This document shows, in pieces, positions 5,523-36,548 of a stretch of 36,548 bases of DNA. The stretch lies in IMG/VR virus record IMGVR_UViG_3300045988_076321. One strand, written 5' to 3'. Source of the DNA: a virus. A program made the translations under genes and the position numbers. The notes under the pieces were generated by a model. That model was given only the letters and a program-made list of their open reading frames with translations, was not told the origin of the DNA and made no database searches. Numbering within the stretch: position 1 is the first letter of the stretch; every line of letters starts with the position of its first letter.

Positions 5523-5525
5523 CAA

Positions 5526-5714
5526 ATGGCCCAGAAGAAAAAGACCGTCGCCGTCGACCAGGAAGCGCCGGTCTTCACAAAGGAACAACTGGTCAAGTCT
5601 AAAACCCTGGGCGTCCCCCAGGACGCCGTCGCGGCGATCCTGAAGGACGGCCAGACCTACACACGGGAAGAAGCGGTCCGCCTTGTGACCGACTTCCTTG
5701 AAAGGAGCGTGTAA
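5526..5714 (+). CDS. Hypothetical small protein
   Basis: 62-aa ORF filling the gap before the sheath gene, with codon style like its neighbours. Confidence 0.45.
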   Translation: MAQKKKTVAVDQEAPVFTKEQLVKSKTLGVPQDAVAAILKDGQTYTREEAVRLVTDFLERSV

Positions 5715-14155: not shown

Positions 14156-14902
14156 ATGGCAAGATTTAAGTCTATCGTCACGGACGCCGGAGCGGCGGCC
14201 CTGACGGCCCTGATCGCGGCCGGAAAGCCGCTGATCCTGACCCGTGCGGCGGCCGGAAGCGGCGTCGCCACCGTCAGCCCGAACACCCTGGCGGACCTGG
14301 TGACGCCGGAGAACGTCGCCGTGAGCCTGGGCGAAAAGGATCTGATCGAGGGCGACCCCGCGATCATGCGAATCCCCGTCCAGGTGACGAACGAAGCCCT
14401 GGACGCCCCTGTCTGGATCAGGGAAGTCGCCGTCTACGGGAACACCATCGACAACACAGAAGTCATGTTCTGCTATGGCTGGCTGGACGGCGATGACAGC
14501 GACAACGTCCTTCCGGCGACGTCCTTCGAGGAAGACGCCGACACCGTCCATATCCACGACCTGGCCGTCTTCGTGACGAACCAGGAAGCCGCGTCCGTGT
14601 CCGTACAGGTGGCCCCTGGTTCCTATGTCACCCGTGAGCAAATGACCACCTACGCGGCGCCCCTGGTCCACACCCAGGGCGCGGACACCATCACCGAAAC
14701 CACCGGAGAGAACACGGAACAGGTCCAGCGCCGCCAGGACAGCGACATCGAAGCGATCAAGGAGCAGTTGAACACCGGCTTCACCGGAACCACCGTGACC
14801 CACACCTTCGCCCCCGCGCAGCTTTCCTACTGGAAGGGCTATGACGGGACCGGAGTTCCCGAAGGGATTCTGGACCAGACAAGGAACCGCCTGTATCTGT
14901 GA
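14156..14902 (+). CDS. Tail fibre / tail-collar fibre protein
   Basis: 248 aa. The N-terminus MARFKSIVTDAGAAALTALIAAGKPLILTRAAAGSG... resembles a phage tail-collar fibre N-terminal domain. It is the last gene of the Xkd-like baseplate block. Confidence 0.65.
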   Translation: MARFKSIVTDAGAAALTALIAAGKPLILTRAAAGSGVATVSPNTLADLVTPENVAVSLGEKDLIEGDPAIMRIPVQVTNEALDAPVWIREVAVYGNTIDNTEVMFCYGWLDGDDSDNVLPATSFEEDADTVHIHDLAVFVTNQEAASVSVQVAPGSYVTREQMTTYAAPLVHTQGADTITETTGENTEQVQRRQDSDIEAIKEQLNTGFTGTTVTHTFAPAQLSYWKGYDGTGVPEGILDQTRNRLYL

Positions 14903-15276
14903 CCAGGATCGCCGCCACGCCGTCGGAAACCTCTTGCCTTATATCGAACCTGTTCACGGAACTTCGTCCCGTGTGCGGCTTCTGTGAGGGCGACAGCGTG
15001 GTTCTTTGCGGCATGACCTACGCCGGCACGGAAGAAGCCGTGGTCCTTCGGGACTACGGCTTCGACTTTACCGGAGACGCCGCTGTGGTCGAGAATATCC
15101 GGAATCGAAGGTGTATCAATGGGATCGCGAAGAAACTACCAGCGGAGCCAGCCCAGCAAGGGCGAAAGCCCGCTTCACATTCTGCCCGTCGCGGACAAAA
15201 TGATCGGCTTCACCCTGTCGACGACCGACAACCCGAAGCGTTTTCCGAAGAAGATCAGATTTTCCGTGACGAATAA
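14899..15276 (+). CDS. Hypothetical protein upstream of avd; only the first roughly 73 codons look coding
   Basis: The GTG start overlaps the fibre stop (gtga). Codon style resembles neighbours up to about 15118. The remaining 158 nt overlap avd in another frame. Confidence 0.35.
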   Translation: MTRIAATPSETSCLISNLFTELRPVCGFCEGDSVVLCGMTYAGTEEAVVLRDYGFDFTGDAAVVENIRNRRCINGIAKKLPAEPAQQGRKPASHSARRGQNDRLHPVDDRQPEAFSEEDQIFRDE

Positions 15277-15577
15277 AATCCAGGGCCACGCCCTGGCGAT
15301 CTATGACTACCTGGTCGAAGCGAACGAAATCTTCCCCATAATGGACGACCAGGACAAGGCCGACCGCCTGAAACTTCAGCGCGCCGCGCTGACGGAGTGC
15401 AAGAAACTTTTGCACATGATCCAGCTTTCGAAGGACCGCGGCTATATTGACAGCGGGACCTTCGACTACTGGACGAAGCTGACGGTCGACGTGAAATGTA
15501 TGACCGCCCGATGGTACGACGCCGAACGGAAGACGGGAATCCCCGTCGAGCCGGCCGGCCCGATCCCTGAAGGCTGA
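15119..15577 (+). CDS. avd: DGR accessory variability determinant (Avd, four-helix-bundle protein)
   Basis: 152-aa basic helical ORF with RBS gaaggtg. ...LPVADKMIGFTLSTTDNPKRFPKKIRFSVTNKIQGHALAIYDYLVEANEI... matches the Avd / 23S-rRNA-IVS four-helix-bundle pattern. It sits immediately 5' of the TR. Confidence 0.8.
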   Translation: MGSRRNYQRSQPSKGESPLHILPVADKMIGFTLSTTDNPKRFPKKIRFSVTNKIQGHALAIYDYLVEANEIFPIMDDQDKADRLKLQRAALTECKKLLHMIQLSKDRGYIDSGTFDYWTKLTVDVKCMTARWYDAERKTGIPVEPAGPIPEG

Positions 15578-15604
15578 TCATAAATCATTAGGGAACGATC
15601 TGTC

Positions 15605-15709
15605 ACCCCGAACGCCGGCAACGCGAACAACGCGCGCAATGTCAACACGGACGGCAGTCTGAACAACAACAACGCGTACAACGGCAACAACGGCGTCCGG
15701 CCGGATTTG
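15605..15709 (+). repeat. DGR template repeat (TR)
   Basis: Non-coding 105-nt segment between avd and the RT, with 12 in-phase AAC triplets and 1 AAT. It is identical to VR1 and VR2 except at TR adenines. Confidence 0.95.
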
Positions 15710-15880
15710 GTGGAAAACGGGACTGATTAGGGCGGAAAGCCTGAAAACAGAGTATCACCAACAAAGGAGATCGTTTCCTTCCGAAGGGCCGCGACAGTCC
15801 CTTCGGTAAATACATGATTGACGACGAAAGGCCTTCAACAGCGACGGCCGGACTATCAGCGTCAAGGAGGATTTTTCTTT

Positions 15881-17122
15881 ATGAAGGATCAGGGAACGCC
15901 CGCCCATGACTTCGCGTCCGTGACGGACTTCAACAATCTATATCAATCGTTTACAGAAGCGCGCAAAGGGAAACGGTGGAAGTATTCCGTGTGCAAATAT
16001 GAAGCGAATGTCCTGGAAAACCTTCTGTTCATTCAGGTCATGCTTCAGCGCCATAAATACCGCCTGTCCCCGTACAACTGCTTCTTCGTGCATGAACCGA
16101 AAGAACGGCTGATCATGTATAACAGCTTCCGCGACAAGATCGTTCAGCATTGTTTATGTGAACAGGTCCTTGAACCGCTTCTTTCGAAGACATTCATCTA
16201 TGACAACTACGCGAGTCAGAAGGGCAAAGGGACCCACTTCGGCCTTGACCGACTGAAGGCGTTCATGGCGGCCTACTACCGCAAGAACGGCGCCGGCGGC
16301 TGGGTGCTGAAGTGCGACGTCCGCAAGTATTTCTATCGGATCAATCACGACGTTCTGAAGACCCAGCTTCGCCGGCTGATCAAGGACCGCGACGTCCTGT
16401 GGCTTCTGGACATGATCATCGACTCCACGGAGGGACCAGGGATTCCGATCGGGAACCACACTTCACAATGGTTCGCGATCCTCTACCTGTCCGACATGGA
16501 CCACATGATCAAGGAACGTCTGGGAATCAAATATTATGGCCGATACATGGACGACTTCTATTTGATACATGAGGACAGGGCCTATTTGCAGTTCTGCCTG
16601 GAAGAAATCCGCCGGTTCCTGGTCCCCCTGGGCCTGGAACTGAACCAGAAGACGGCCATATTCCCGTTATCCCAGGGGATCGACTTCCTGGGCTTTCGGA
16701 CCTACCTGACGGACAGCGGAAAGGTCGTCCGGAAGGTACGCCGTGAGAGCAAGAACCGGATCAGGCGGAAGATCACGAAGTTCCGCCACCTGGTAGACGA
16801 AGGCCGTGTCGACTTCGACACGGTCCTTCAGTCTTATAATTCCTGGACCGGCCACGCCGAACACGGCAACAGTTATCACCTGATCAGCGAGATCGACGAC
16901 CTGTTCTTCAACCTGTTCAGGAAAGAAATGGAGGGAAAACCCTATGGCGAAATCTCTATCCGCTTTGCCCGTTGGAAGCGTCGTCAAGTCGGCGAACACA
17001 AAGTACAACGGACAGGCGATCAGGTGGATCGTCGGCACACAGGACACGTCCCAGGGCCGAACGGGCCTGGTGACGGAAAAGATGATCACCCTGAAATGCT
17101 TCGACGCGAAGGAGTCCGGTAA
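15881..17122 (+). CDS. DGR reverse transcriptase
   Basis: RBS aaggagg sits 9 nt upstream of ATG 15881. RT motifs include ...GIPIGNHTSQWFAILYL... (DGR-type [IV]GxxxSQ) and ...YGRYMDDFYLIH... (YxDD). The last 179 nt overlap the downstream target gene out of frame. Confidence 0.95.
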   Translation: MKDQGTPAHDFASVTDFNNLYQSFTEARKGKRWKYSVCKYEANVLENLLFIQVMLQRHKYRLSPYNCFFVHEPKERLIMYNSFRDKIVQHCLCEQVLEPLLSKTFIYDNYASQKGKGTHFGLDRLKAFMAAYYRKNGAGGWVLKCDVRKYFYRINHDVLKTQLRRLIKDRDVLWLLDMIIDSTEGPGIPIGNHTSQWFAILYLSDMDHMIKERLGIKYYGRYMDDFYLIHEDRAYLQFCLEEIRRFLVPLGLELNQKTAIFPLSQGIDFLGFRTYLTDSGKVVRKVRRESKNRIRRKITKFRHLVDEGRVDFDTVLQSYNSWTGHAEHGNSYHLISEIDDLFFNLFRKEMEGKPYGEISIRFARWKRRQVGEHKVQRTGDQVDRRHTGHVPGPNGPGDGKDDHPEMLRREGVR

Positions 17123-18650
17123 CAGCAACAGCGACCGCCGGAGTTACGGCAATAACCGTTATTCCGTTTCGAACATCGACAAGTGGCTGAACAGTGCGGC
17201 CGCGTCCTGGTATGCCGCACAGCACGGAGCCGACGCCCCGCCCACGTCCGCGAACTGTTGGAACGGCTATAACCCCTACGACACCGAAGCCGGCTTCCTG
17301 GCGAACTTCGAAGCCGCCTTCCGAAACGCGATCCTGGATTCCACGATCCGCGTCGCGAAGAACACCGTCACCGACGGCGGCGGTTATGAAGACATCGTTC
17401 GACAGGTCTTTTTGCTTTCGAACACGAACGTCGGCCTTTCCAACGAAAACGGCGTGGCCGAAGGTTCCTTGTGGTCCTACTTCAATTCCGCGTCGCGCCG
17501 CCAGTGCTACCCCACGGCGGAAGCCGTCAGCAAGTCCACCTACACCAGTTCCAGCCTGTCCGCTTCTCAATATTGGTGGTGGTGGTTAAGAACCCCGCAC
17601 GCCGGCAACGCGTACTACGCGCGCAATGTCTACACGGACGGCAGTCTGAACAACGGCTACGCGTACAGCGGCCCCGGCGGCGTCCGGCCGGCTTTGTATT
17701 TGGCATCTTCGAATCTGGTATCCGATACAACCGACACAGACGGCGCTTATATCCTTCTGTGGAACCAGCCGCCCACAGCCCCGTCTTCCATTACCTACGG
17801 CACCCCCCAGGCGGGACAGAACCTGACCCTGTCGACCGGCGGATCGACCGATCCGGAGGGCGACGCCATTTCCTACGTCTGGGAACGGAAGGTGGATTCC
17901 GGCGTCTGGACCCAGATCGGGATCACCACCGCGAAGACGATCCAGGACACGGTCCCGTCCAGCGGAACAACCTACTACGCGCGCGTGAAGGCCGTGGACG
18001 CGGTCGGGAATGAATCGGCATATTGCACCGGTTCCGGAAAGGCCATTTCCTACAACACCCCGCCCGTGATCAGCGGTTCCGACCAGAACATGGGCGCGAA
18101 GACCGACCCCTTCACCTACAAATACACCGTCACCGACGCCCAGTCCGCCACCCAGACCATGACCGTGACGGAAACCCTGACCAACGGAACGGAAACCATC
18201 ACCCTTCGCACCTACACGGCCACGGCCGGCGCCCAGAACACCGCCGACCTGTCGTCCGTCTGGATCAGGCTGACCGCGGGGACCCACGTCCTGAAGATCA
18301 CCGCTTCCGACGGCGCCGGTGGAACGGCTGTCCGGAACATCACCTTCAGCCGCACCGTCACCAGGATCGCCGCGGCCCGCGCCTTCAACACCGACGCGAA
18401 GGTCACGAAGGTCTTCGTTTCCCTGTACCCGTCCGACCGTCCGGCCGGTTCCACGCTCCACCTGGAAGTGACGAACAACCCGTTCGACACGAACCCCGTC
18501 TGGGAGGACATCACAGAGAAGGCGAACCGCCTGGTCCACACCTTCGCGAACAGCACCGTCGCAAATGGCTACGGCCTGGGCTATCGGTTCTATCTGCTGA
18601 AGGGAACGGAGGAAATCGAGATCACCCAGGCGACGATCCGTTTCGCCTGA
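16944..18650 (+). CDS. DGR target protein 1: fibre/receptor-binding-like protein with an N-terminal C-type-lectin-fold-like variable domain followed by Ig/FN3-like repeats
   Basis: 568-aa ORF with RBS ggaggga. Contains VR1, which encodes WWWWLRTPHAGNAYYARNVYTDGSLNNGYAYSGPGGVRPALYL. Downstream are beta-rich repeats (PPTAPSSITYGTPQAGQNLTLSTGGSTDPEGDAISYVWERKVD...). Confidence 0.9.
   Translation: MAKSLSALPVGSVVKSANTKYNGQAIRWIVGTQDTSQGRTGLVTEKMITLKCFDAKESGNSNSDRRSYGNNRYSVSNIDKWLNSAAASWYAAQHGADAPPTSANCWNGYNPYDTEAGFLANFEAAFRNAILDSTIRVAKNTVTDGGGYEDIVRQVFLLSNTNVGLSNENGVAEGSLWSYFNSASRRQCYPTAEAVSKSTYTSSSLSASQYWWWWLRTPHAGNAYYARNVYTDGSLNNGYAYSGPGGVRPALYLASSNLVSDTTDTDGAYILLWNQPPTAPSSITYGTPQAGQNLTLSTGGSTDPEGDAISYVWERKVDSGVWTQIGITTAKTIQDTVPSSGTTYYARVKAVDAVGNESAYCTGSGKAISYNTPPVISGSDQNMGAKTDPFTYKYTVTDAQSATQTMTVTETLTNGTETITLRTYTATAGAQNTADLSSVWIRLTAGTHVLKITASDGAGGTAVRNITFSRTVTRIAAARAFNTDAKVTKVFVSLYPSDRPAGSTLHLEVTNNPFDTNPVWEDITEKANRLVHTFANSTVANGYGLGYRFYLLKGTEEIEITQATIRFA
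17592..17696 (+). repeat. DGR variable repeat 1 (VR1)
   Basis: Hand alignment to the TR shows 13 mismatches over 105 nt, all at TR adenines (e.g. AAC to CAC, TAC, GGC, AGC, CCC). Confidence 0.95.
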
Positions 18651-22369: not shown

Positions 22370-23416
22370 ATGAAACGTCGCAGATTCAAGCAACTGACCA
22401 GAGCGGATCGCCTGAATATCGAAAAGTATCTTCGCCAGGGTATGACGAAACAGGCCGTCGCCGACGCCCTGGGCGTCAGCCTTCGAACGGTATATTATGA
22501 ACTGAAGCGCGGCCAGTATATCCACACCAATTCCGACCTTACGGAGGAAGTCCGTTATAGCTGTGACGTCGCCGAATCAGTCAAGAAGTACAACGGCACG
22601 AACAAAGGCCCACAGTTAAAGATCGGCAACGACCACGAACTGGCGGCCTACATTGAACGGCGGATCGTGGAAGACGGCTATTCGCCGGCGGCGGTCCTTG
22701 GAGAAATCCGCGTCAAGGGAATGAAGTTCAAGACGTCGATCTGTAAGTCGACACTGTATTCCTATATCCGGAAGGGCGTCTTCCTGACCCTTGAAATGCG
22801 CGACCTTCCCCGTCACGGTAAGAACAAGCGCGGCTACACCCGCACCCACAAGAAGGGCGCCAGGGCGTCCGCCGGAACCAGCATTGAACACCGGCCGGAG
22901 GAAGTGAACGCCAGGACGACCGTCGGTCATTGGGAAATGGACTCCGTCCTGGGAAAGAAGAAGACGAAGCCGGCCCTTCTGGTCCTGTCTGAACGACTGT
23001 CCAGGAAGGAACTGATCATCAAGGTCCAGGATCACACCGCCGCCAGCGTAGTTCGCGCCCTGGACCGCCTGGAACGGAAGATGGGATCGCCGGCCTTCCG
23101 TGCCACCTTCAAGTCGATAACCGTCGACAATGGTTCCGAGTTTGCCGACGTCGACGGCATGGAACGAAGCTGTCGCCGAAAGGGGCCGCGGACGAAGGTC
23201 TATTACTGCCACCCCTATTCTTCCTGGGAACGCGGGACCAACGAAAACACGAACGGCCTGATCCGCCGCTGGTTCCCGAAGGGGACAGACTTCAGCAAAG
23301 TCAGCGTCCAGGAAATCCAGAAGGTCGAAGACTGGCTGAACGCCTATCCCCGCGAAATCCTGGGCTTCCTATCTGCTGACGCGGTCTTCTCCACCGCCTT
23401 CGCGGCCTGTGTCTGA
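22370..23416 (+). CDS. IS30-family DDE transposase/recombinase
   Basis: 348 aa. It has an N-terminal HTH (RADRLNIEKYLRQGMTKQAVADALGVSLRTVYYELKRG) and DDE region motifs HWEMDSV, TVDNGSEF and SSWERGTNENTNGLIRRWFPKGTDF. No flanking inverted repeats could be identified by eye. Confidence 0.9.
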   Translation: MKRRRFKQLTRADRLNIEKYLRQGMTKQAVADALGVSLRTVYYELKRGQYIHTNSDLTEEVRYSCDVAESVKKYNGTNKGPQLKIGNDHELAAYIERRIVEDGYSPAAVLGEIRVKGMKFKTSICKSTLYSYIRKGVFLTLEMRDLPRHGKNKRGYTRTHKKGARASAGTSIEHRPEEVNARTTVGHWEMDSVLGKKKTKPALLVLSERLSRKELIIKVQDHTAASVVRALDRLERKMGSPAFRATFKSITVDNGSEFADVDGMERSCRRKGPRTKVYYCHPYSSWERGTNENTNGLIRRWFPKGTDFSKVSVQEIQKVEDWLNAYPREILGFLSADAVFSTAFAACV

Positions 23417-23445: not shown

Positions 23446-23474
23446 TTGACTTTTGCGCAGCCCCCGTGTATAGT
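23446..23474 (+). promoter_or_regulatory. Putative early-operon promoter (TTGACT-17 nt-TATAGT)
   Basis: TTGACT at 23446-23451 and TATAGT at 23469-23474 in an AT-rich 133-nt gap. A TTTTGCAAAA palindrome lies at 23431-23440 just upstream. Confidence 0.5.
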
Positions 23475-27491: not shown

Positions 27492-27896
27492 GTGGAAACC
27501 TGGAAAGTGACGATCCCTGGCCTTTTACCTGGCCTGAATGAGTACATAGACGCGGAACGCGCCGTCAAGGGCAAGTACAAGGCCGCCGCCATGAAGAAAC
27601 AGGCCGAAAATGTGATCGGCTTCATGGTGAAGACCCAGCTTCGCGGTGTCCGCTTCGACCGGCCGGTGATCATTCATTACCGCTGGATCGAGCCGAACCG
27701 CCGCCGCGACAAGGACAACGTCGCCTTCGCGAAGAAGTTCATTCAGGACAGCCTGGTCCACGCCGGCGTCCTGGTGAACGACGGCTGGAACCAGATCGAG
27801 GGCTTCACGGACGACTTCGCCGTGGACCCGAAGAACCCCCGCGTGGAAGTGACTATCGAGATATTCGAAGGAGGAAAACGACATGGCAAATATTAA
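27492..27896 (+). CDS. rusA: RusA-family Holliday junction resolvase
   Basis: 134 aa with a GTG start. ...LPGLNEYI...RRRDKDNVAFAKKFIQDSLVHAGVLVNDGW... shows the RusA catalytic Asp pattern. Confidence 0.75.
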   Translation: METWKVTIPGLLPGLNEYIDAERAVKGKYKAAAMKKQAENVIGFMVKTQLRGVRFDRPVIIHYRWIEPNRRRDKDNVAFAKKFIQDSLVHAGVLVNDGWNQIEGFTDDFAVDPKNPRVEVTIEIFEGGKRHGKY

Positions 27897-28479
27897 GACT
27901 TTGAAGGACCTGACCCCTGGGACCGTCTTCGACGCCGGCCCGATCGACGTCCGCGTCCTGGATCACATGACCAACGGGACGACCCTTCTGATCGCCGACA
28001 AGGCGGTCGCGTGGCGTCCCTTCTCCCTGGAACCCCTGAAGACCCGTCCGGAGGAAGCGCCTACCCCTTACCCGAACGACTTCAGCCTGTCCTATCTGAA
28101 GGACGAACTGAACGGTCCCTTCCTGGCGGCCTTCGACACCGCCGGCGGCCCGATCCGTTCCGCGAACATCGTGGAAGCGAACTGGTCCCTGGCAGATCAC
28201 CGCGGCGGCTTCGGCTACGGCAACACGAAGGCGAAGATCAGCCTTCTTCCCGAAGCCCTGTTCCTGAAGTACAAGTCCCTTCTGGCCCTGGACGACTGGT
28301 GGTGGCTTGCGACCCCGTACGCCGGCCACGCGCGCATCGCGCGCACTGTCATCACGGACGGCAGTCTGTACGGCTACTACGCGTACCTCGGCTACCGCGG
28401 CGTCCGGCCGGCTTTCTTCGCGGAATCTGGAATCATTCTGGAATCCGACGGCGGCGAAGCGGTGGAAGCCCATGAATAA
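27883..28479 (+). CDS. DGR target protein 2: stand-alone variable ligand-binding domain protein (remote target)
   Basis: 198-aa ORF overlapping the rusA end by 14 nt. Its C-terminal part carries VR2 (DDWWWLATPYAGHARIARTVITDGSLYGYYAYLGYRGVRPAFFAES). The fold signature (W..L..P...GVRPA) is shared with target 1. No N-terminal signal or TM segment is visible. Confidence 0.9.
   Translation: MANIKTLKDLTPGTVFDAGPIDVRVLDHMTNGTTLLIADKAVAWRPFSLEPLKTRPEEAPTPYPNDFSLSYLKDELNGPFLAAFDTAGGPIRSANIVEANWSLADHRGGFGYGNTKAKISLLPEALFLKYKSLLALDDWWWLATPYAGHARIARTVITDGSLYGYYAYLGYRGVRPAFFAESGIILESDGGEAVEAHE
28312..28415 (+). repeat. DGR variable repeat 2 (VR2)
   Basis: Hand alignment to TR 15605-15708 shows 18 mismatches, all at TR adenines. 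The first non-A mismatch (G vs C) is at 28416 and marks the repeat boundary. Confidence 0.95.
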
Positions 28480-28726
28480 TCCCGCGACGACCCGCGAGTG
28501 GATCGGCCGGCGGCGCCTTCGGGCGTCCGTCGACCGGACCCTGGGCGTGAAGGTGCCGAAGGTGGTCTTCGACGAAGCGGAAGCATACGCCAGACGGAAG
28601 ATGGCCTTCCAGAACGAAGTCCTGGGCCTGGACCGCGGCGACGAATACTTGGAACTTCTGATCCCCGACGTGATCCGCGAAATGGTCCTGGCGGCCAGGT
28701 ATGACGGAAGGAGGGCGACGGCGTGA
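28472..28726 (+). CDS. Hypothetical protein
   Basis: 84-aa ORF. Its ATG overlaps the end of target 2, and its stop overlaps the methyltransferase GTG (gtga). Confidence 0.5.
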   Translation: MNNPATTREWIGRRRLRASVDRTLGVKVPKVVFDEAEAYARRKMAFQNEVLGLDRGDEYLELLIPDVIREMVLAARYDGRRATA

Positions 28727-30039
28727 AATTACTGATCGGCGGTTCGCCGTGTACGCATTGGAGTATAGCCCAGACGAAGCACAGAGAAACGGAGCCTTCC
28801 GGCCTGGGCTGGGAATTGTTCCTGAACTATCTGATCGCAAGGGAAAAATATCGTCCGGACTATTTCCTGTATGAAAACAACAAGTCTATGTCGCCGGCGA
28901 TCAGGGCGCAGATCACCCGCGAACTGGGTGTCGAACCGATCCTGATCAATTCGGCCCTTGTCAGCGCCCAGAGTCGACAGCGGCTATACTGGACGAATAT
29001 TCCTGGCGTGGAGCAACCGGAGGATCGCGGAATCCTGGTCCGCGACATACTGGAAAGCGGTGTCTGCTGGAAAGATAAGGCGTACACGCTGAAAGCGTCA
29101 GCGGGCCACCAGAACGGCCCTTCGAACATTATCCGGAGCATTGAAACCAACGGCCATTTCTCCGCAAATGGCGTGGCGGAACCCGTCAACATCACCGCAG
29201 ACGGGAAGGCGCAATGTTTACGGGCTACTTATTACAAGGACGGGATTCGAAATCTTGTCGGGAACACGATTGACCGGAAGACCTGTGTCGCCGTCCGTGT
29301 CGGTGATATGCCAAACGCCGAAGGCGAAATCATCGGGAGCCAGAGCAAGCGCGTTTACAGCGTCGACGGAAAGTCTGTTCCGTTACAGGCACGGCCGAAC
29401 GGCGGCGGAGCGGACGGAGCGGCGACCGGCCTATATGCGGTTCCGACCGGTATCGCATGGCGGGGCCGTGACGGTTCTTCTTCCTACGAAGCCCGAAGCG
29501 ATCAGAAGACGAACGCCGTGACGGCGGACGGCCACCAAAGCCGCATGGTGATTATAGCCGCTGGCGGAAAGGCACACCCCGTCTATTCCGTCACGGACGG
29601 ATTTATCGAAATCAAGGGGAAGAAGTACCCGATCCGGCTTCCGGACGGCCTGTATATTATCCGCAAACTGACCGTCAACGAATGCAAACGCCTTCAAACG
29701 GTTCCGGAATGGTATCGCTTCAGCGTAAGTCAGACCCAGGCCTACAAAATGTTGGGGAACGGCTGGACGGTGGACGTGATCAGCCATATTTTATCCTATT
29801 GCCCAGGCCTGACGGAAACGCCGACCGAAGTATTTTCCATGTATGACGGAATGTCGTGCGGGCGACTGGCCCTTCTGAAGCTGGGTGTGAATATCACAAA
29901 TTACTATGCGACGGAGATCGACAAATACGCGATCGCAACCACACAGGAAAATTTCCCCGATACGGTCCAGTTAGGGGACGCCTTCCAGGTTCGGGAAGAC
30001 GGTTGGACACTTCAGAAAGGCGGTGCAATCAATGAGTGA
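28723..30039 (+). CDS. DNA (cytosine-5) methyltransferase with apparently permuted motif order (IV-X followed by I-III)
   Basis: 438 aa with RBS ggaaggaggg. The motifs, read in order, are as follows:
- IV: LIGGSPCTHWS
- VI: FLYENNKS
- VIII: SAQSRQRLYW
- IX: RKLTVNECKRLQTVPEWY
- X: YKMLGNGWTVDVI
- I: VFSMYDGMSCGRLAL
- II: YYATEIDKYA
- III: QLGDAFQV. Confidence 0.75.
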   Translation: MKLLIGGSPCTHWSIAQTKHRETEPSGLGWELFLNYLIAREKYRPDYFLYENNKSMSPAIRAQITRELGVEPILINSALVSAQSRQRLYWTNIPGVEQPEDRGILVRDILESGVCWKDKAYTLKASAGHQNGPSNIIRSIETNGHFSANGVAEPVNITADGKAQCLRATYYKDGIRNLVGNTIDRKTCVAVRVGDMPNAEGEIIGSQSKRVYSVDGKSVPLQARPNGGGADGAATGLYAVPTGIAWRGRDGSSSYEARSDQKTNAVTADGHQSRMVIIAAGGKAHPVYSVTDGFIEIKGKKYPIRLPDGLYIIRKLTVNECKRLQTVPEWYRFSVSQTQAYKMLGNGWTVDVISHILSYCPGLTETPTEVFSMYDGMSCGRLALLKLGVNITNYYATEIDKYAIATTQENFPDTVQLGDAFQVREDGWTLQKGGAINE

Positions 30040-30852: not shown

Positions 30853-31018
30853 AGAAGTCCGCCGGAAGGTCGAGAAGGAAGAAAAGGCGTGTGCGACGTG
30901 TGGGAACCTGGTCCGCATAGGCGGGACGCTGATCGGCTGTGTCGCCCATGACAAACTGATCCTTCCGAACTATCCGCCCTACTTCGGACAAAAGCCGTGT
31001 CCGGACTGGAAGCCCTGA
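30839..31018 (+). CDS. Small Cys-rich protein
   Basis: 59-62 aa (ATG 30839 or GTG 30830). Contains CATCG...C...CPDW. Confidence 0.45.
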   Translation: MTFLEEVRRKVEKEEKACATCGNLVRIGGTLIGCVAHDKLILPNYPPYFGQKPCPDWKP

Positions 31019-31025
31019 TCCTGGA

Positions 31026-31214
31026 ATGGCCCAGAAGAAGCGCCAGGGCGTCCCGCTGGCGATCCAGTATTCCATATTTGAAGGCGGCGACGTCTTCGTC
31101 TGCCCCTTCTGCTGTGCCGACCTTGCACGGACCGAAGCCGGAATCCCGCGCAAGTGTCCGGAGTGCGGACAACCCATAGAAAGGAAGCAAAGCCATGATC
31201 GGAAGAAGGCGTAA
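31026..31214 (+). CDS. Small zinc-ribbon protein
   Basis: 62 aa with CPFCC...CPEC. Confidence 0.5.
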   Translation: MAQKKRQGVPLAIQYSIFEGGDVFVCPFCCADLARTEAGIPRKCPECGQPIERKQSHDRKKA

Positions 31215-31449
31215 GAACTTGCCGAAGTGGCGCTACGACTTCAACTGTCGGAAGTGCGACAATATCCAGTTCATCGACGACCCCGCGCGCGGCCGCCTGG
31301 GCGACTACTGCGTGGCGTGTGTGGAAGCCTTCGACCAGGGACGGCCGAACCCGATCCACGCCGACGACGACCGCGTCGTCCGGTGCGATTGCTTTCGGCC
31401 GATCCCCGAACCTGAAGAGGAAGAACAGAAAGAAGGTGAACCCACATGA
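31195..31449 (+). CDS. Small zinc-ribbon protein
   Basis: 84 aa with CRKC...CVAC plus CDC, and an acidic tail. Confidence 0.5.
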   Translation: MIGRRRKNLPKWRYDFNCRKCDNIQFIDDPARGRLGDYCVACVEAFDQGRPNPIHADDDRVVRCDCFRPIPEPEEEEQKEGEPT

Positions 31450-31952
31450 TGAAGCGTTTTCTGACCGGCGTCCTGTCCATCATCGCGGGAACGGCCCTGG
31501 TGCTGACGTCCTTCGCCGGTGCGTGTTCCGAAGACACCGGAAGTGTAAACGGACCACCCGCCCAGGAAACGCCGTCAACGGCCTTCCGGGGGCCTTCTGG
31601 AACCCTTTCCGAAACGGAAACAGTTCCGGAGCCGGAACCGGAATGGATCGAAGCCGTGGCGACCGCGTACTGTCCATGTGAACGGTGCTGTGGTTCCTGG
31701 GCGCTGAACCGGCCGGACGGGATCGTCTACACCGCCAGCGGCGCCGAAGCTGTCCAGGGCGTGACGATCGCCGCCGACTGGTCGATCTACCCGCCAGGGA
31801 CCGTCCTGTTCGTGGAAGGCCTGGGCGAAATGGTCGTCCAGGACCGCGGCGGAGCGATCCAGGGCCAGAAGATCGACGTCTACTTCGAGAGCCACGACGA
31901 CGCCCTTCAGTTCGGCCGCCAGAATGTCCGGTTCTACATAGTGAACGACTGA
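31446..31952 (+). CDS. Secreted/lipoprotein 3D-domain protein (RlpA/MltA-like double-psi beta-barrel)
   Basis: Signal peptide MMKRFLTGVLSIIAGTALVLTSFAGAC with a lipobox-like AGAC. The C-terminus ...ATAYCPCERCCG...TASGAEAVQGVTIAADWSIYPPGTVLFVEGLGEMVVQDRGGAIQGQKIDVYF is the 3D-domain signature. Confidence 0.75.
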   Translation: MMKRFLTGVLSIIAGTALVLTSFAGACSEDTGSVNGPPAQETPSTAFRGPSGTLSETETVPEPEPEWIEAVATAYCPCERCCGSWALNRPDGIVYTASGAEAVQGVTIAADWSIYPPGTVLFVEGLGEMVVQDRGGAIQGQKIDVYFESHDDALQFGRQNVRFYIVND

Positions 31953-32032
31953 AAGAAGCTGAAATCAAATGATAGCACGGGCAAGCGGACGAAGTCCGAC
32001 TTGCTATCGTGCAGAAAGGAAACAGAACAGAC

Positions 32033-32440
32033 ATGGAGATCAAAGACATCGTTCAGAAGGCACACGACAACGCCGTCAAGCACGGCTTCTGGGACCCACC
32101 CCTTCCCTTCGGGACGGCGATCGCGCTGATCCATAGCGAACTTTCCGAAGCCCTGGAAGAGGAACGCGCCGGCCGGCCCCTGGTCTGGTATCATTGCACG
32201 GAGGGCGACCCGTCCCTTCCCTGTGACCCCGCGGACGAAACCGAGTGCTTCCAGTACGGCCACGAAGACGCCTGTCAGTACAGAAACCAGAAGCCCGAAG
32301 GCGTGGCCGTGGAACTGGCCGACGCCGTGATCCGGATCGCTGACCTGTGCGGCCACCTGGGAATCGACCTGGACGCCGTGATCGCGGAGAAGATGGCCTA
32401 CAACGCCGGTCGCCCCTATAAGCACGGGAAGCGGTTCTGA
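32033..32440 (+). CDS. MazG-like nucleoside triphosphate pyrophosphohydrolase
   Basis: ...KHGFWD...IALIHSELSEALEEER...EGVAVELADAVIRIADLCGHLGIDLDAVIAEKMAYNAGRP shows the EExxE / ExxD MazG pattern. GTG 32009 is an alternative start. Confidence 0.7.
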   Translation: MEIKDIVQKAHDNAVKHGFWDPPLPFGTAIALIHSELSEALEEERAGRPLVWYHCTEGDPSLPCDPADETECFQYGHEDACQYRNQKPEGVAVELADAVIRIADLCGHLGIDLDAVIAEKMAYNAGRPYKHGKRF

Positions 32441-33454: not shown

Positions 33455-33492
33455 TATAGTCGGGAACAGCGTGTTCCCCCTCCTTTTGAATA

Positions 33493-35363: not shown

Positions 35364-36548
35364 ATGGCCGAATATTCCGTCATGGACCGGATCAATATGA
35401 TCATTTCCGATCCGGACCACGCGACAATGACCCTGGCCCAGATCGTGACCGAAGAAATCAGGGAGTTTAAGGCATCCGAGCAGTACGCGAACATGATCCA
35501 GGCCGAAGCCTATTACAGAAACCGGACCGACGTCCAGCGGAAGACGAACGACGTCGCGAACCGGTCGAATACCAGGATCGAACACCCGATTCTGAAGAAG
35601 CTGGTCGACCAGAAGGCGAACTACCTTCTGGGGAAGCCCTTCACCGTGGACACGAAGAACAGTTCCTACGGCGACGCCCTGAACGACGTCTTCGACCAGA
35701 CCTTCCGCCGGAAGATTAAGTCCCTGGGGAAGGGCGCTGTGAAGTCCGGTATTGCATGGCTTCAGCCCTACTTCGACGACGGGAAACTGGCCTTCATGCG
35801 AATCCCGTCCGCGGAACTGGTCCCGATCTGGCGCGACGCAGAGCGAACGAAGCTGGACGCCTTCATTCGCTTCTATGACCAGGTGATCTACATCGGCACC
35901 AGGAAGCACACGATCACCCACGCCGAACTGTGGTGGACCGGCGGCGTCAAGTATTTCAAAACCGACGCCTTCGCCGGCACCATCGCCGGCGACTTCATCG
36001 TCGACACCGAACACGGCGACGAAGCCAACGACTACACCGAACCCCATTTCACCGTCGGCGACAAGGCCTACAACTGGGACACCGTCCCGATCGTCTGGCT
36101 GAAGTACAACGAAGAGGAACTTCCCCTTTGCTACTTCATCAAGGACCTGATCGACGACATCAACTGGCAGACGTCCGTGACCGCCGACGTTCTCCGCGAC
36201 GTGGCGAAGTTCATCTATATCCTGAAGAACTACGGCGGCCAGGACTTGGGCGAGTTCATCAAGGACCTGAAGGAACACATGGCGATCAAAGTCACCACCG
36301 ACGGCGGTGTGGACAAACTTCAGGCCGATCTTAATATCGACGCCGTCATGGCCTTCCTGGATAAACAGCGACGCGACGTCTACGACTTCGCCGCGGCCGT
36401 CGACACGAAGGACCCTGACCTGGGGAACGCGTCCGGAACGGCGATCAATTTCCGCTATATGGACCTGTCGTCCGACTGCGATTCCCTGGCGACCGAACTG
36501 AAGGACACCTTCCAGCGCCTGAAACTGTTCATCGACGTTTACCTTCAG
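35364..36548 (+). CDS. Portal protein (SPP1 gp6-like), N-terminal part; continues at 142..450 of the window through the circular junction
   Basis: ATG 35364 lies after RBS aagggag. I translated by hand and the frame is open to the window end. The total reconstructed length is about 497 aa. Confidence 0.85.
   Translation, partial: MAEYSVMDRINMIISDPDHATMTLAQIVTEEIREFKASEQYANMIQAEAYYRNRTDVQRKTNDVANRSNTRIEHPILKKLVDQKANYLLGKPFTVDTKNSSYGDALNDVFDQTFRRKIKSLGKGAVKSGIAWLQPYFDDGKLAFMRIPSAELVPIWRDAERTKLDAFIRFYDQVIYIGTRKHTITHAELWWTGGVKYFKTDAFAGTIAGDFIVDTEHGDEANDYTEPHFTVGDKAYNWDTVPIVWLKYNEEELPLCYFIKDLIDDINWQTSVTADVLRDVAKFIYILKNYGGQDLGEFIKDLKEHMAIKVTTDGGVDKLQADLNIDAVMAFLDKQRRDVYDFAAAVDTKDPDLGNASGTAINFRYMDLSSDCDSLATELKDTFQRLKLFIDVYLQ
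36408..36548. repeat. Terminal direct repeat, identical to 1..141
   Basis: Same 141-nt string as the window start. Confidence 0.9.

Follow-up and report, generated by a model that had tools for sequence, protein, structure and literature searches.

A second, remote DGR target lies among the replication and recombination genes of a temperate myophage

A single DGR in the window, the whole stretch of 36,548 nucleotides analysed here, has two target genes, and the second lies far from its template among replication and recombination genes. This second target (target 2) is almost certainly an active DGR target of a published class, 'target2', in which a small DUF6273-only protein accompanies a tentaclin; the arrangement is not new. 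What our analysis adds is the recurrence of the small gene in the early module across about ten divergent lineages. Our best explanation overall, which we hold to be probable, is that target 2 is a target2-class DGR target and a free early-module binder, a soluble single-domain ligand-binding protein of the DUF6273 / PHROG 9958 family. A sequence-only reading of this DNA had noticed a second, remote DGR target. That observation is confirmed and its interpretation is partly supported.

Results

One template and two variable repeats

The window is a complete circular genome of 36,407 bp, its first and last 141 nt being identical, and belongs to a temperate myophage of a Lawsonibacter-like member of Oscillospiraceae. 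Its one DGR consists of avd, a template repeat (TR), a reverse transcriptase (RT) and exactly two variable repeats, VR1 and VR2 (Table 1). The RT carries an IGNHTSQ motif, and its reading frame overlaps the following gene, target 1, by 179 nt. The avd product also matches Pfam 23S_rRNA_IVP at 24.8 bits, under the curated cut-off. Using a pattern made from the invariant repeat bases, we found exactly three repeat copies in the window (15650, 17637 and 28357), against a chance expectation of 0 in 100 shuffles. These three copies with their adenine mismatches bear out the claim of a genuine second, non-adjacent target.

It is only with the copy at 15604 as template that the differences fall at adenines. 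All 32 TR adenines occupy codon position 1 or 2 in both target frames, and the two non-adenine mismatches of VR2 are the first and last base of the repeat. The 18 and 13 adenine-site changes previously counted for VR2 and VR1 are exact; each includes an A-to-C at TR 15705 that is fixed and common to both. Comparison of VR1 with VR2 shows 21 differing sites, and the earlier view that each was rewritten independently is supported. Both end in the same 17-nt GC-rich putative IMH, one base off the IMH* of the TR. Downstream of VR2 or VR1, no BPP-1-type hairpin or cruciform beat shuffled sequence; a weak imperfect hairpin 3' of VR2 (28419-28450) has a z-score of +1.06 against shuffles. A hairpin enhancer of the BPP-1 type is not universal among DGRs.

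The distance from TR to VR2, given as 10.7 kb in the sequence-only reading, is in fact 12,707 nt; the spacing between VR1 and VR2 is 10,720. Taking the copy at 17577 as the TR would make 10.7 kb fit, but this was rejected, since the copy that is both intergenic and AAC-rich is the one at 15604. From the RT stop to the start of the ORF at 27883 is likewise 10.7 kb.

By analogy with mutagenic retrohoming in Bordetella phage BPP-1, TR RNA would be copied by an RT-Avd complex with adenine-specific errors, and the cDNA would replace either VR under direction of the IMH, leaving the TR intact. Some 2x10^18 protein variants could be possible across the strands encoded by VR2 (model residues 140-181).

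Table 1. Features of the window that bear on the DGR and its two targets
Feature	Coordinates	Strand	Details
Tail fibre	14156-14902		248 aa
avd (accessory variability determinant)	15119..15577	+	PHROG 3206 'Avd protein of DGR', E 1.3e-23
Template repeat (TR)	15604..15709	+	AAC-rich, 32 adenines, intergenic between avd and RT
TR 3' end, IMH* (putative)	15692-15708		GGCGTCCGGCCGGATTT
DGR reverse transcriptase	15818..17122	+	Pfam RVT_1 E 7e-18; PHROG 1423 E 4e-139
Target 1, 568-aa 'tentaclin' (N-terminal DUF6273 + downstream domains)	16944..18650	+	Pfam DUF6273 E 1e-37, residues 42-254
VR1	17591..17696	+	14 mismatches to TR, 13 at adenines
VR1 putative IMH	17679-17695		GGCGTCCGGCCGGCTTT
RusA-like Holliday junction resolvase	27492..27896	+	PHROG 1682 E 1e-38; Pfam RusA 21 bits
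Target 2, 198-aa stand-alone DUF6273 / PHROG 9958 protein	27883..28479	+	PHROG 9958 E 3.4e-37, residues 2-189
VR2, codons 144-178	28311..28416	+	20 mismatches to TR, 18 at adenines
VR2 putative IMH	28399-28415		GGCGTCCGGCCGGCTTT
84-aa ORF	28472..28726	+	Gene called at equivalent L001 position
C5 cytosine DNA methyltransferase	28723..30039	+	Pfam DNA_methylase E 2e-25

VR2 is rewritten in natural populations

We found 1012 homologues of target 2, the best 120 of which are all 90-95% identical to it, and computed entropy on 118 same-length, near-identical metagenomic homologues. Mean entropy is 2.13 bits at the 19 TR-adenine codons versus 0.087 bits elsewhere. Because entropy concentrates at these codons, VR2 is being actively rewritten in nature. 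Residues at partly adenine codons match the prediction from the TR, namely T/A/S/P at 158, D/G/V/A at 159 and S/G/R at 161, and codon 177 (Ala) is invariant in all 118. Tyr, Asn, Ser, Asp, Gly and His are enriched at the variable sites. The sequence-only reading had named a VR2 that stays constant while VR1 varies as a ground for abandoning it; natural variation at VR2 is no smaller than at VR1, which removes that ground.

The same picture is seen in DNA. Between L001 and the window, the 428 nt 5' of VR2 are 99.5% identical and VR2 is 84% identical, and L002 and L045 show the same pattern. VR2 of L004 was left out of this comparison, its register being shifted by an indel. Two relatives at 60% protein identity have 10/10 and 13/14 of their VR2-to-own-TR mismatches at adenines and keep a live VR2. 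A search of +/-10 kb around the distant L005 and L006 homologues gave no TR.

There is very little chance that VR2 is a fossil or a chance repeat which the DGR no longer rewrites. VR decay does occur: in the relative L043, the VR of the gene at this position bears 13 non-adenine differences from the TR of L043. However, the internal differences of the window VRs are all at adenines and the putative IMH is intact, hundreds of natural variants differ almost exclusively at TR-adenine codons, and shuffled sequence gives zero chance matches to the repeat. The fossil or chance-repeat reading is already contradicted by the population entropy and the L001 DNA comparison.

Target 2 is predicted to be a single binding domain

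Besides PHROG 9958, target 2 matches Pfam DUF6273 at 31 bits (cut-off 23.5) over residues 139-179, a family described as C-type-lectin-like (PMC10743442: C-type-lectin domain). VR2 encodes the C-terminal end of the DUF6273 domain. A GGAGG stands 8 nt 5' of the target 2 ATG. The AlphaFold2 model is one globular domain (pLDDT 91.8, pTM 0.87), with strands over VR2 at 140-145, 152-156, 162-166, 172-174 and 176-181. In BFVD, Foldseek matches the model to DUF6273 proteins with E down to 8e-8. The closest solved structure among the matches listed is PDB 9qa6 (Foldseek E 2.9e-5, query-normalised TM-score 0.62; profile search E 1.3e-10). It is the N-terminal DUF6273 domain of the Thomasclavelia ramosa IgA protease and is like target 2 in fold, although the protease is a secreted, cell-wall-anchored bacterial protein and not a DGR target (PMC12402451).

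The N-terminus is polar and there are no cysteines. We saw no hydrophobic N-terminus, signal peptide, lipobox or TM segment in target 2, the top 19-residue Kyte-Doolittle mean being 0.96, and no attachment or further domain in the model (no beta-prism, beta-sandwich or C-terminal Ig anchor). The earlier description, a stand-alone variable domain lacking a secretion or attachment module, agrees with this single-domain model and polar N-terminus. Pfam scans of longer family members for informative fusions returned only fn3 (tentaclin-like) and one DUF5983.

Target 1 resembles target 2 only in the VR segment, with 55% identity over 49 aa. Its full length matches PHROG 10993 'Hoc-like head decoration' (E 2e-200), it is 42-44% identical to the nd12 and nd4 target1 proteins, and by sequence it fits the tentaclin family.

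Target 2 might itself belong to the virion, as a receptor-binding tip or adaptor that docks on the particle, whether at the short tail fibre or at another site, in the way that Mtd does on BPP-1 fibres. VR2 diversification would then change host range, and the gene would merely sit outside the late operon. We regard this as possible, though short of likely. A separately encoded tip protein is plausible because the tail fibre is just 248 aa and has no recognisable receptor-binding tip. The TR is common with the tentaclin, itself proposed to be virion-exposed, and the residues enriched at the variable sites are typical of binding sites. To our knowledge, the phage DGR targets characterised by experiment are all receptor binders. 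However, target 2 has no attachment module in its one globular domain, and no Mtd chain is among the 50 Foldseek PDB matches listed for it. Its gene also shares bases with rusA on one side and, on the other, with an ORF running into a methyltransferase gene, and the early-module position described below recurs in lineages with unrelated structural modules.

The gene recurs in early replication and recombination modules

Target 2 lies between rusA and the C5 methyltransferase, in the replication/recombination module where the sequence-only reading had placed it; the 198-aa length and the 14-nt overlap with rusA are likewise correct. That reading also put a small ORF and the methyltransferase downstream. 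Both are present, the small gene being the 84-aa ORF; the Arg/Pro/Gly-rich frame at 28498-28704 was rejected as a gene. The ATG of the 84-aa ORF overlaps the target 2 stop by 8 nt (ATGAATAA), its own stop overlaps the methyltransferase GTG by 4 nt (GTGA), and it matched nothing in PHROG or PADLOC. No strong terminator-like site was found between a promoter-like site at 23446-23474 and a hairpin at 33462-33478, which stands immediately 5' of the small terminase gene. With the early half of the window as query, megablast returned a single kind of match, an amidase of an Acutalibacter phage.

Related phages keep the remote target in this place. L001-L004 share the order Gp157, Erf, replication initiator, DnaC, RusA, target. 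Elsewhere the target lies in the early module (contig of P0131), adjoins SSB (P0139), follows an S24 repressor and a PDDEXK nuclease (P0155) or precedes RNase_T, Gam, Erf and SSB (P0165). Read from ORF translations, the distant homologue precedes a Hjc-like resolvase, helicase and polymerase in L005 and a C5 methyltransferase in L006. The whole cassette lies between a ParB-like nuclease and terminase in L009 and L011. In FP_Brigit, gp06 is the third gene past a cro-like gene and has 7 A-changes to the Brigit TR. The contexts of P0178, P0185, P0192 and P0221, contigs of 1-4 kb, added little. In about ten divergent lineages, then, the early replication/recombination module is where the small gene sits, and in none of them does it lie with the tail genes. 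This recurrence supports a non-structural reading without proving a non-structural role.

One such reading makes target 2 an early-made intracellular binder of a variable host protein, a DGR-diversified inhibitor or sensor used in adaptive counter-defence. Counter-defence genes often sit beside orphan methyltransferases and nucleases, and target 2 has such neighbours in its early module. The protein has no secretion signal and no cysteine, and its gene travels among phages whose virion modules are unrelated. In multicellular bacteria, DGR-diversified cytoplasmic proteins are reported as putative antigen sensors (PMC10907252). We nevertheless consider this reading unlikely: PADLOC gave no match for target 2 or six neighbouring small proteins, no homology to a known anti-defence or defence family was seen, target 2 has no effector domain, and no data here point to an intracellular ligand. 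Equally doubtful, in our estimate, is its extension to the family, that PHROG 9958 small proteins are a widespread early non-virion class whose DGR-rewritten face keeps pace with a variable molecule inside the host cell, for example a defence protein.

Exported or peptidoglycan-active neighbours also recur. The window encodes a 3D-domain protein with a lipoprotein-like signal at 31446-31952; L005 and L006 have SLT-like and SleB-like proteins with membrane anchors near the homologue, as read from translations; and Hydrolase_2 (a weak match) and Glucosaminidase lie near it in L059 and L057, on short contigs with scant context. Exported cell-wall hydrolases beside several homologues hint at an envelope-directed function. 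Target 2 could be a free extracellular lectin, released at lysis or leaking in lysogeny, that binds cell-wall polysaccharide or host mucosal glycans and might act with the peptidoglycan hydrolases exported from the same region. In one lysogen, secretome and vesicles were both found to contain a tentaclin (bioRxiv 10.64898/2026.05.08.723808). However, target 2 itself has no export signal, the hydrolase link is loose (2-3 kb off in the window) and the short contigs yield little context; we judge this reading improbable.

Comparison with the published class and other DGR targets

The tentaclin and 'target2' pair has been published for nd4 and nd12 (PMC10743442), FP_Toutatis (bioRxiv 10.1101/2024.10.15.618418), and Lelie and CP11 (PMC11792537). 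When the phage collection was searched by tblastn with the 198-aa protein, nothing matched at E <= 1e-3, the Toutatis, Lelie and CP11 records included. The phage genomes were therefore reached through tentaclin and Toutatis gp24; nd4 and nd12 do match target 2 when a small local database is searched. Wu et al. 2018 (PMC5758913) catalogued remote targets inside prophages: many phage-associated DGRs in that survey pair an adjacent target with a non-adjacent one lying no more than 50 kb away, and the non-adjacent phage targets stand there without functional or module-level description.

The second targets of nd4 and nd12 are, like target 2, DUF6273-only proteins with a VR at the 3' end and a TR common with a tentaclin, which has an N-terminal lectin and is encoded just past the RT, as in the window. 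VR1 and VR2 likewise differ within each genome. The VR2 genes lie in the early region, 11.7 kb (nd4) and 14.1 kb (nd12) from their own TR. In nd4, VR2 is in CDS 30965-31669, followed by an RNase_T-like gene and then a homologous C5 methyltransferase, to which that of the window is 50% identical; in nd12, VR2 is in CDS 31285-32178. In contrast, nd4_tgt2 and nd12_tgt2 are longer (234 aa and 294 aa), just 29-36% identical to target 2 over aligned parts, and nd12_tgt2 has a DUF3310-like N-terminal helix (PMC10743442). Baykov et al. 2023 (PMC10743442) treat both genes as part of 'the cassette' and propose an Mtd-like receptor role; the words 'replication', 'early', 'distance', 'upstream' and 'downstream' are absent from the text of that paper.

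FP_Toutatis also encodes a tentaclin downstream of the RT, and its small DUF6273 protein, gp24, carries a remote second VR at a distance of 17,480 nt from the TR. The early genes around gp24 include methyltransferases, a replication initiator and a 3D-domain protein. Unlike the window, FP_Toutatis has a Faecalibacterium host and a 54-kb genome. In Lelie, the small target is encoded at 40024-40668 of PP479942. Variation of both VRs among cognate genomes has been demonstrated for CP11 (PMC11792537 / bioRxiv 10.1101/2024.10.15.618418). In Toutatisvirus the small gene is core, present in 98.8% of genomes, and in the Toutatis class it is reported core even without a DGR (bioRxiv 10.1101/2024.10.15.618418). 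Such core status is unusual for counter-defence genes; it agrees better with an essential role in the virion than with an accessory gene for counter-defence. A receptor-binder role is guessed or favoured by the authors of all three class papers and proposed explicitly in PMC10743442 and bioRxiv 10.1101/2024.10.15.618418.

Mtd of Bordetella phage BPP-1 is like target 2 in its C-terminal VR, C-type-lectin-type scaffold, diversification at TR adenines and IMH at the VR 3' end. The mtd gene adjoins the DGR at the end of the tail module, whereas target 2 is encoded 12.7 kb from its TR among replication genes. Mtd has 381 aa, and its N-terminal beta-prism and beta-sandwich presumably fix the trimer to the tail fibre (PMC10743442); target 2 has neither extra domain. 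Unlike tentaclins, it has no Ig-like domains or C-terminal Ig anchor after the lectin domain, and unlike surface-displayed bacterial DGR targets of the LtdA / TvpA type, it has no signal peptide or lipobox by hydropathy.

Discussion

Judged by gene position, target 2 would be a free binder made together with the early replication and recombination genes and not a built-in part of the virion. That it is non-virion is, on the same ground, close to an even call. Early expression and a cytoplasmic target, both raised by the sequence-only reading, we likewise infer from where the gene lies.

Phage DGRs are currently understood as host-range devices acting on tail proteins. The target2 class is hypervariable in nature, yet many unrelated gut phages consistently encode it together with genes for replication and recombination. 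Inducible isolates already exist in Lelie, FP_Brigit and a Lawsonibacter lysogen. If target 2 is a virion protein, phages can encode a key receptor binder at a long distance from the structural module, and such genes will escape annotation pipelines and those DGR surveys that consider only adjacent targets. If it is non-virion, phages diversify a binder for another purpose and the role of DGRs is broader. Should the counter-defence or takeover reading of PHROG 9958 be true, it would be the first case in which a phage applies targeted hypermutation to counter-defence or takeover and not to adsorption.

A second, remote DGR target

The window carries exactly three copies of a 106-nt repeat, against zero expected by chance: the template repeat (TR) and two variable repeats (VR1 and VR2). 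In the target frames, every TR adenine (32/32) occupies codon position 1 or 2. TR and VR1 differ at 14 positions, 13 of them adenines; TR and VR2 differ at 20, with 18 at adenines and the remaining two being the outermost bases. A comparison of the two VRs gives 21 differing sites. Each VR ends in GGCGTCCGGCCGGCTTT, where the TR has GGCGTCCGGCCGGATTT, and judged by sequence this is the IMH/IMH* pattern. The IMH/IMH* difference sets the direction of DGR homing. The sequence-only reading had counted 18 (VR2) and 13 (VR1) A-site changes, and these match, although each includes one fixed A-to-C IMH change. Its TR-VR2 distance of ~10.7 kb needs correction to 12,707 nt; 10,720 is the VR1-VR2 spacing.

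Coordinates of the DGR elements and other features (window positions unless a locus is named)
Feature	Position	Strand	Remarks
TR	15604-15709	+	intergenic, avd/RT gap; AAC-rich, 32 adenines
VR1	17591-17696	+	mid-protein in 568-aa tentaclin
VR2	28311-28416	+	3' end of 198-aa ORF
198-aa ORF	27883-28479
Tail fibre	14156-14902	+	248 aa, PHROG 7037; ends directly upstream of avd
RT ORF	15818-17122
Tentaclin ORF	16944-18650
IS30-like DDE transposase	22370-23416	+	PHROG 4646, E 3e-131; in expected integrase position
Promoter-like site	23446-23474
84-aa ORF	28472-28726
68-aa frame	28498-28704
3D-domain protein	31446-31952	+	early region; N-terminal lipoprotein-like signal MMKRFLTGVLSIIAGTALVLTSFAGAC
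Hairpin	33462-33478
Left prophage junction	L001 ~5525-5632
Target homologue	L043 21188-21703
DGR cassettes	L009 7601-10387; L011 9132-11938		Oscillospiraceae MAG prophages
FP_Brigit (NC_047909)	L060 3948-4559 (gp06); L061 2362-2489		gp06 VR ~41 kb from TR on linear record
Small DUF6273 genes beside SLT-like, SleB-like hydrolases	L005 9179-9922; L006 9254-9988		hydrolases with membrane anchors; read from translations
Small DUF6273 gene beside Hydrolase_2	L059 2177-2854		weak match
Small DUF6273 gene beside Glucosaminidase	L057 666-1097

Public metagenomes hold 1012 homologues of the 198-aa protein, the best 120 of which are all 90-95% identical. Across 118 same-length homologues, mean entropy is 2.13 bits at the 19 TR-adenine codons versus 0.087 bits in other columns, and single-adenine codons carry exactly the predicted residues (T/A/S/P at 158, D/G/V/A at 159, S/G/R at 161). 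At the DNA level, the homologous locus L001 and the window are 99.5% identical over the 428 nt 5' of VR2 and 84% within VR2; VR1 shows the same pattern in nine related contigs. The proposal that both VRs were independently rewritten is supported. In this phage group, numerous IMG/VR contigs terminate within VR1 or VR2 (L044, L045, L047-L053), as expected where a site varies within a sample. Taken together, the adenine-codon entropy, DNA divergence and contig breaks identify VR2 as an active DGR target, an interpretation we regard as secure. Its theoretical repertoire is ~2x10^18 proteins. Because assemblies break at hypervariable sites, surveys requiring RT and VR on one contig will under-count remote targets of this kind.

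A single-domain DUF6273 protein

No upstream in-frame start was found for the 198-aa ORF, and by inspection its product is without a hydrophobic N-terminus, TM segment or cysteine. PHROG 9958 (function unknown) covers residues 2-189 and Pfam DUF6273 the C-terminal part. An AlphaFold2 model, built on a diverse set of 48 family members, has high confidence (pLDDT 91.8, pTM 0.87) and predicts a single globular domain, in which VR2 would span strands 140-181. With one domain and neither signal nor TM segment, the earlier description as a stand-alone variable domain was correct. The top structural matches are gut-phage DUF6273 proteins and the N-terminal DUF6273 of the T. ramosa IgA protease (9qa6); Legionella Lcl matches weakly. 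Tentaclin has an N-terminal DUF6273 and matches PHROG 10993 ('Hoc-like head decoration') over its full length. Similarity between the two window proteins is confined to the VR segment, so the 198-aa protein is not a recent copy of the tentaclin domain.

The pairing of tentaclin with a small remote DUF6273 target is already published, and our protein joins that class. Gut phages nd4 and nd12 each pair a tentaclin target1, in which an N-terminal lectin domain is joined to Ig-like domains, with a target2 consisting of DUF6273 only; one TR serves both (Baykov et al., PMC10743442). FP_Toutatis has the same pair; its second VR gene, a core gene of the genus, is separated from the TR by 17,480 nt (10.1101/2024.10.15.618418, 2024 preprint). 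Phages Lelie and CP11 carry large and small DUF6273 targets, with both VRs variable among cognate genomes (demonstrated in CP11) (PMC11792537), and numerous non-adjacent targets in prophages were listed earlier by Wu et al. (PMC5758913). In the portions of these papers available to us, the small protein is guessed to be a receptor binder or its role is left open, and we found no comment there on its genome module.

The gene keeps an early-region position

The terminal 141 nt of the window are identical (1-141 and 36408-36548), which makes the assembly circular and complete at 36,407 bp, opened within the portal gene. All plausible genes lie on the + strand, and their content marks a small temperate myophage, with genes for a Mu-F-like protein, sheath, tape measure, baseplate and tail fibre, the DGR, genes for holin and amidase, one XRE-type HTH gene, and terminase genes. 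The early region runs Gam/Gp157-like, Erf-like, replication initiator, DnaC-like, RusA, 198-aa ORF, 84-aa ORF, C5 methyltransferase, 3D-domain protein, MazG-like pyrophosphatase, SSB and regulator. The lipoprotein-like signal suggests that the 3D-domain gene encodes an exported peptidoglycan-active protein amid replication genes. No strong terminator-like site lies between the promoter-like site and the target in the window; the hairpin is immediately 5' of the small terminase gene.

Two overlapping small ORFs lie 3' of the target. The start of the 84-aa ORF overlaps the target stop and its stop overlaps the methyltransferase start; the frame is called in L001 and looks like a real protein. 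The 68-aa frame, Arg/Pro/Gly-rich and resembling an off-frame artefact, was rejected as a gene. The RT ORF extends ~59 codons beyond homology, overlapping the tentaclin ORF by 179 nt, and this extension is also present in 95-99% identical relatives. Prophage copies have their left junction just 5' of the first early gene, beside host rpsF-ssb-rpsR. Together with the location of the transposase, this makes the DDE enzyme a probable integrase, and integration may thus not use a tyrosine or serine recombinase. Transposase homologues are present in nd12 and nd4.

Close relatives, including a Lawsonibacter sp. LCP25S3_E2 prophage and a 171-kb metagenomic contig, preserve the order Gp157, Erf, replication initiator, DnaC, RusA, target, small ORF, and have exchanged the genes 3' of it. 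Where tentaclin identity is 80% and target identity 60%, the gene still follows RusA and VR2 is live, adenines accounting for 10/10 and 13/14 differences from its own TR. Conservation of the remote target in this operon, raised as a question by the sequence-only reading, is therefore borne out. At locus L043 the gene (45% identity) again follows RusA; with only 14/27 VR-TR differences falling on adenines, this target has apparently decayed or become uncoupled.

Distant phages place the gene similarly. In nd4, target2 precedes an RNase_T-like gene and a methyltransferase that shares 50% identity with the one in the window; the target2 of nd12 is likewise within the early region. FP_Toutatis gp24 is surrounded by methyltransferase, 3D-domain and replication-initiator genes. 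FP_Brigit gp06, annotated hypothetical, is the third gene past a cro-like gene, upstream of exonuclease, RecT, replisome organiser, DnaC and RusA; its VR matches the Brigit TR, with 7 adenine changes and an IMH-type change identical to that of Brigit VR1. Other distant members adjoin SSB, a PDDEXK nuclease 3' of an S24 repressor, or RNase_T, Gam, Erf and SSB. From ORF translations rather than profile hits, neighbours are a Hjc-like resolvase, helicase and polymerase (L005) and a C5 methyltransferase (L006). Two prophages carry the whole cassette (two tandem small PHROG 9958 targets, avd, TR, RT) between ParB-like nuclease and terminase genes, not at the tail-module end. Among the phages compared, no small target lies among tail genes. 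Distant small DUF6273 genes also directly adjoin cell-wall hydrolase genes, a recurrent neighbour.

Possible roles of the protein

Several features favour a protein that does not form a built-in part of the virion: its gene's position, the overlaps with rusA and the ORF leading into the methyltransferase, the lack of an attachment module, and the gene's occurrence in phages whose virion modules are unrelated. We give this reading about an even chance. Four points speak against it: to our knowledge, every tested phage DGR target is a receptor binder, the tail fibre of this phage is short, the small gene is core in Toutatisvirus, and exported cell-wall hydrolases recur nearby. The tail-fibre gene is the only recognisable one in the window, whose structural module shows no evident receptor-binding tip. 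A virion receptor binder is a less likely alternative. Of the two non-virion roles considered, binding of an intracellular target, as originally proposed, is the likelier, though unlikely overall; a free extracellular lectin is less likely still. The functional speculation of the sequence-only reading is reasonable, and the conserved early-module position lends it some strength. The remote second DGR target in this phage is real and significant.
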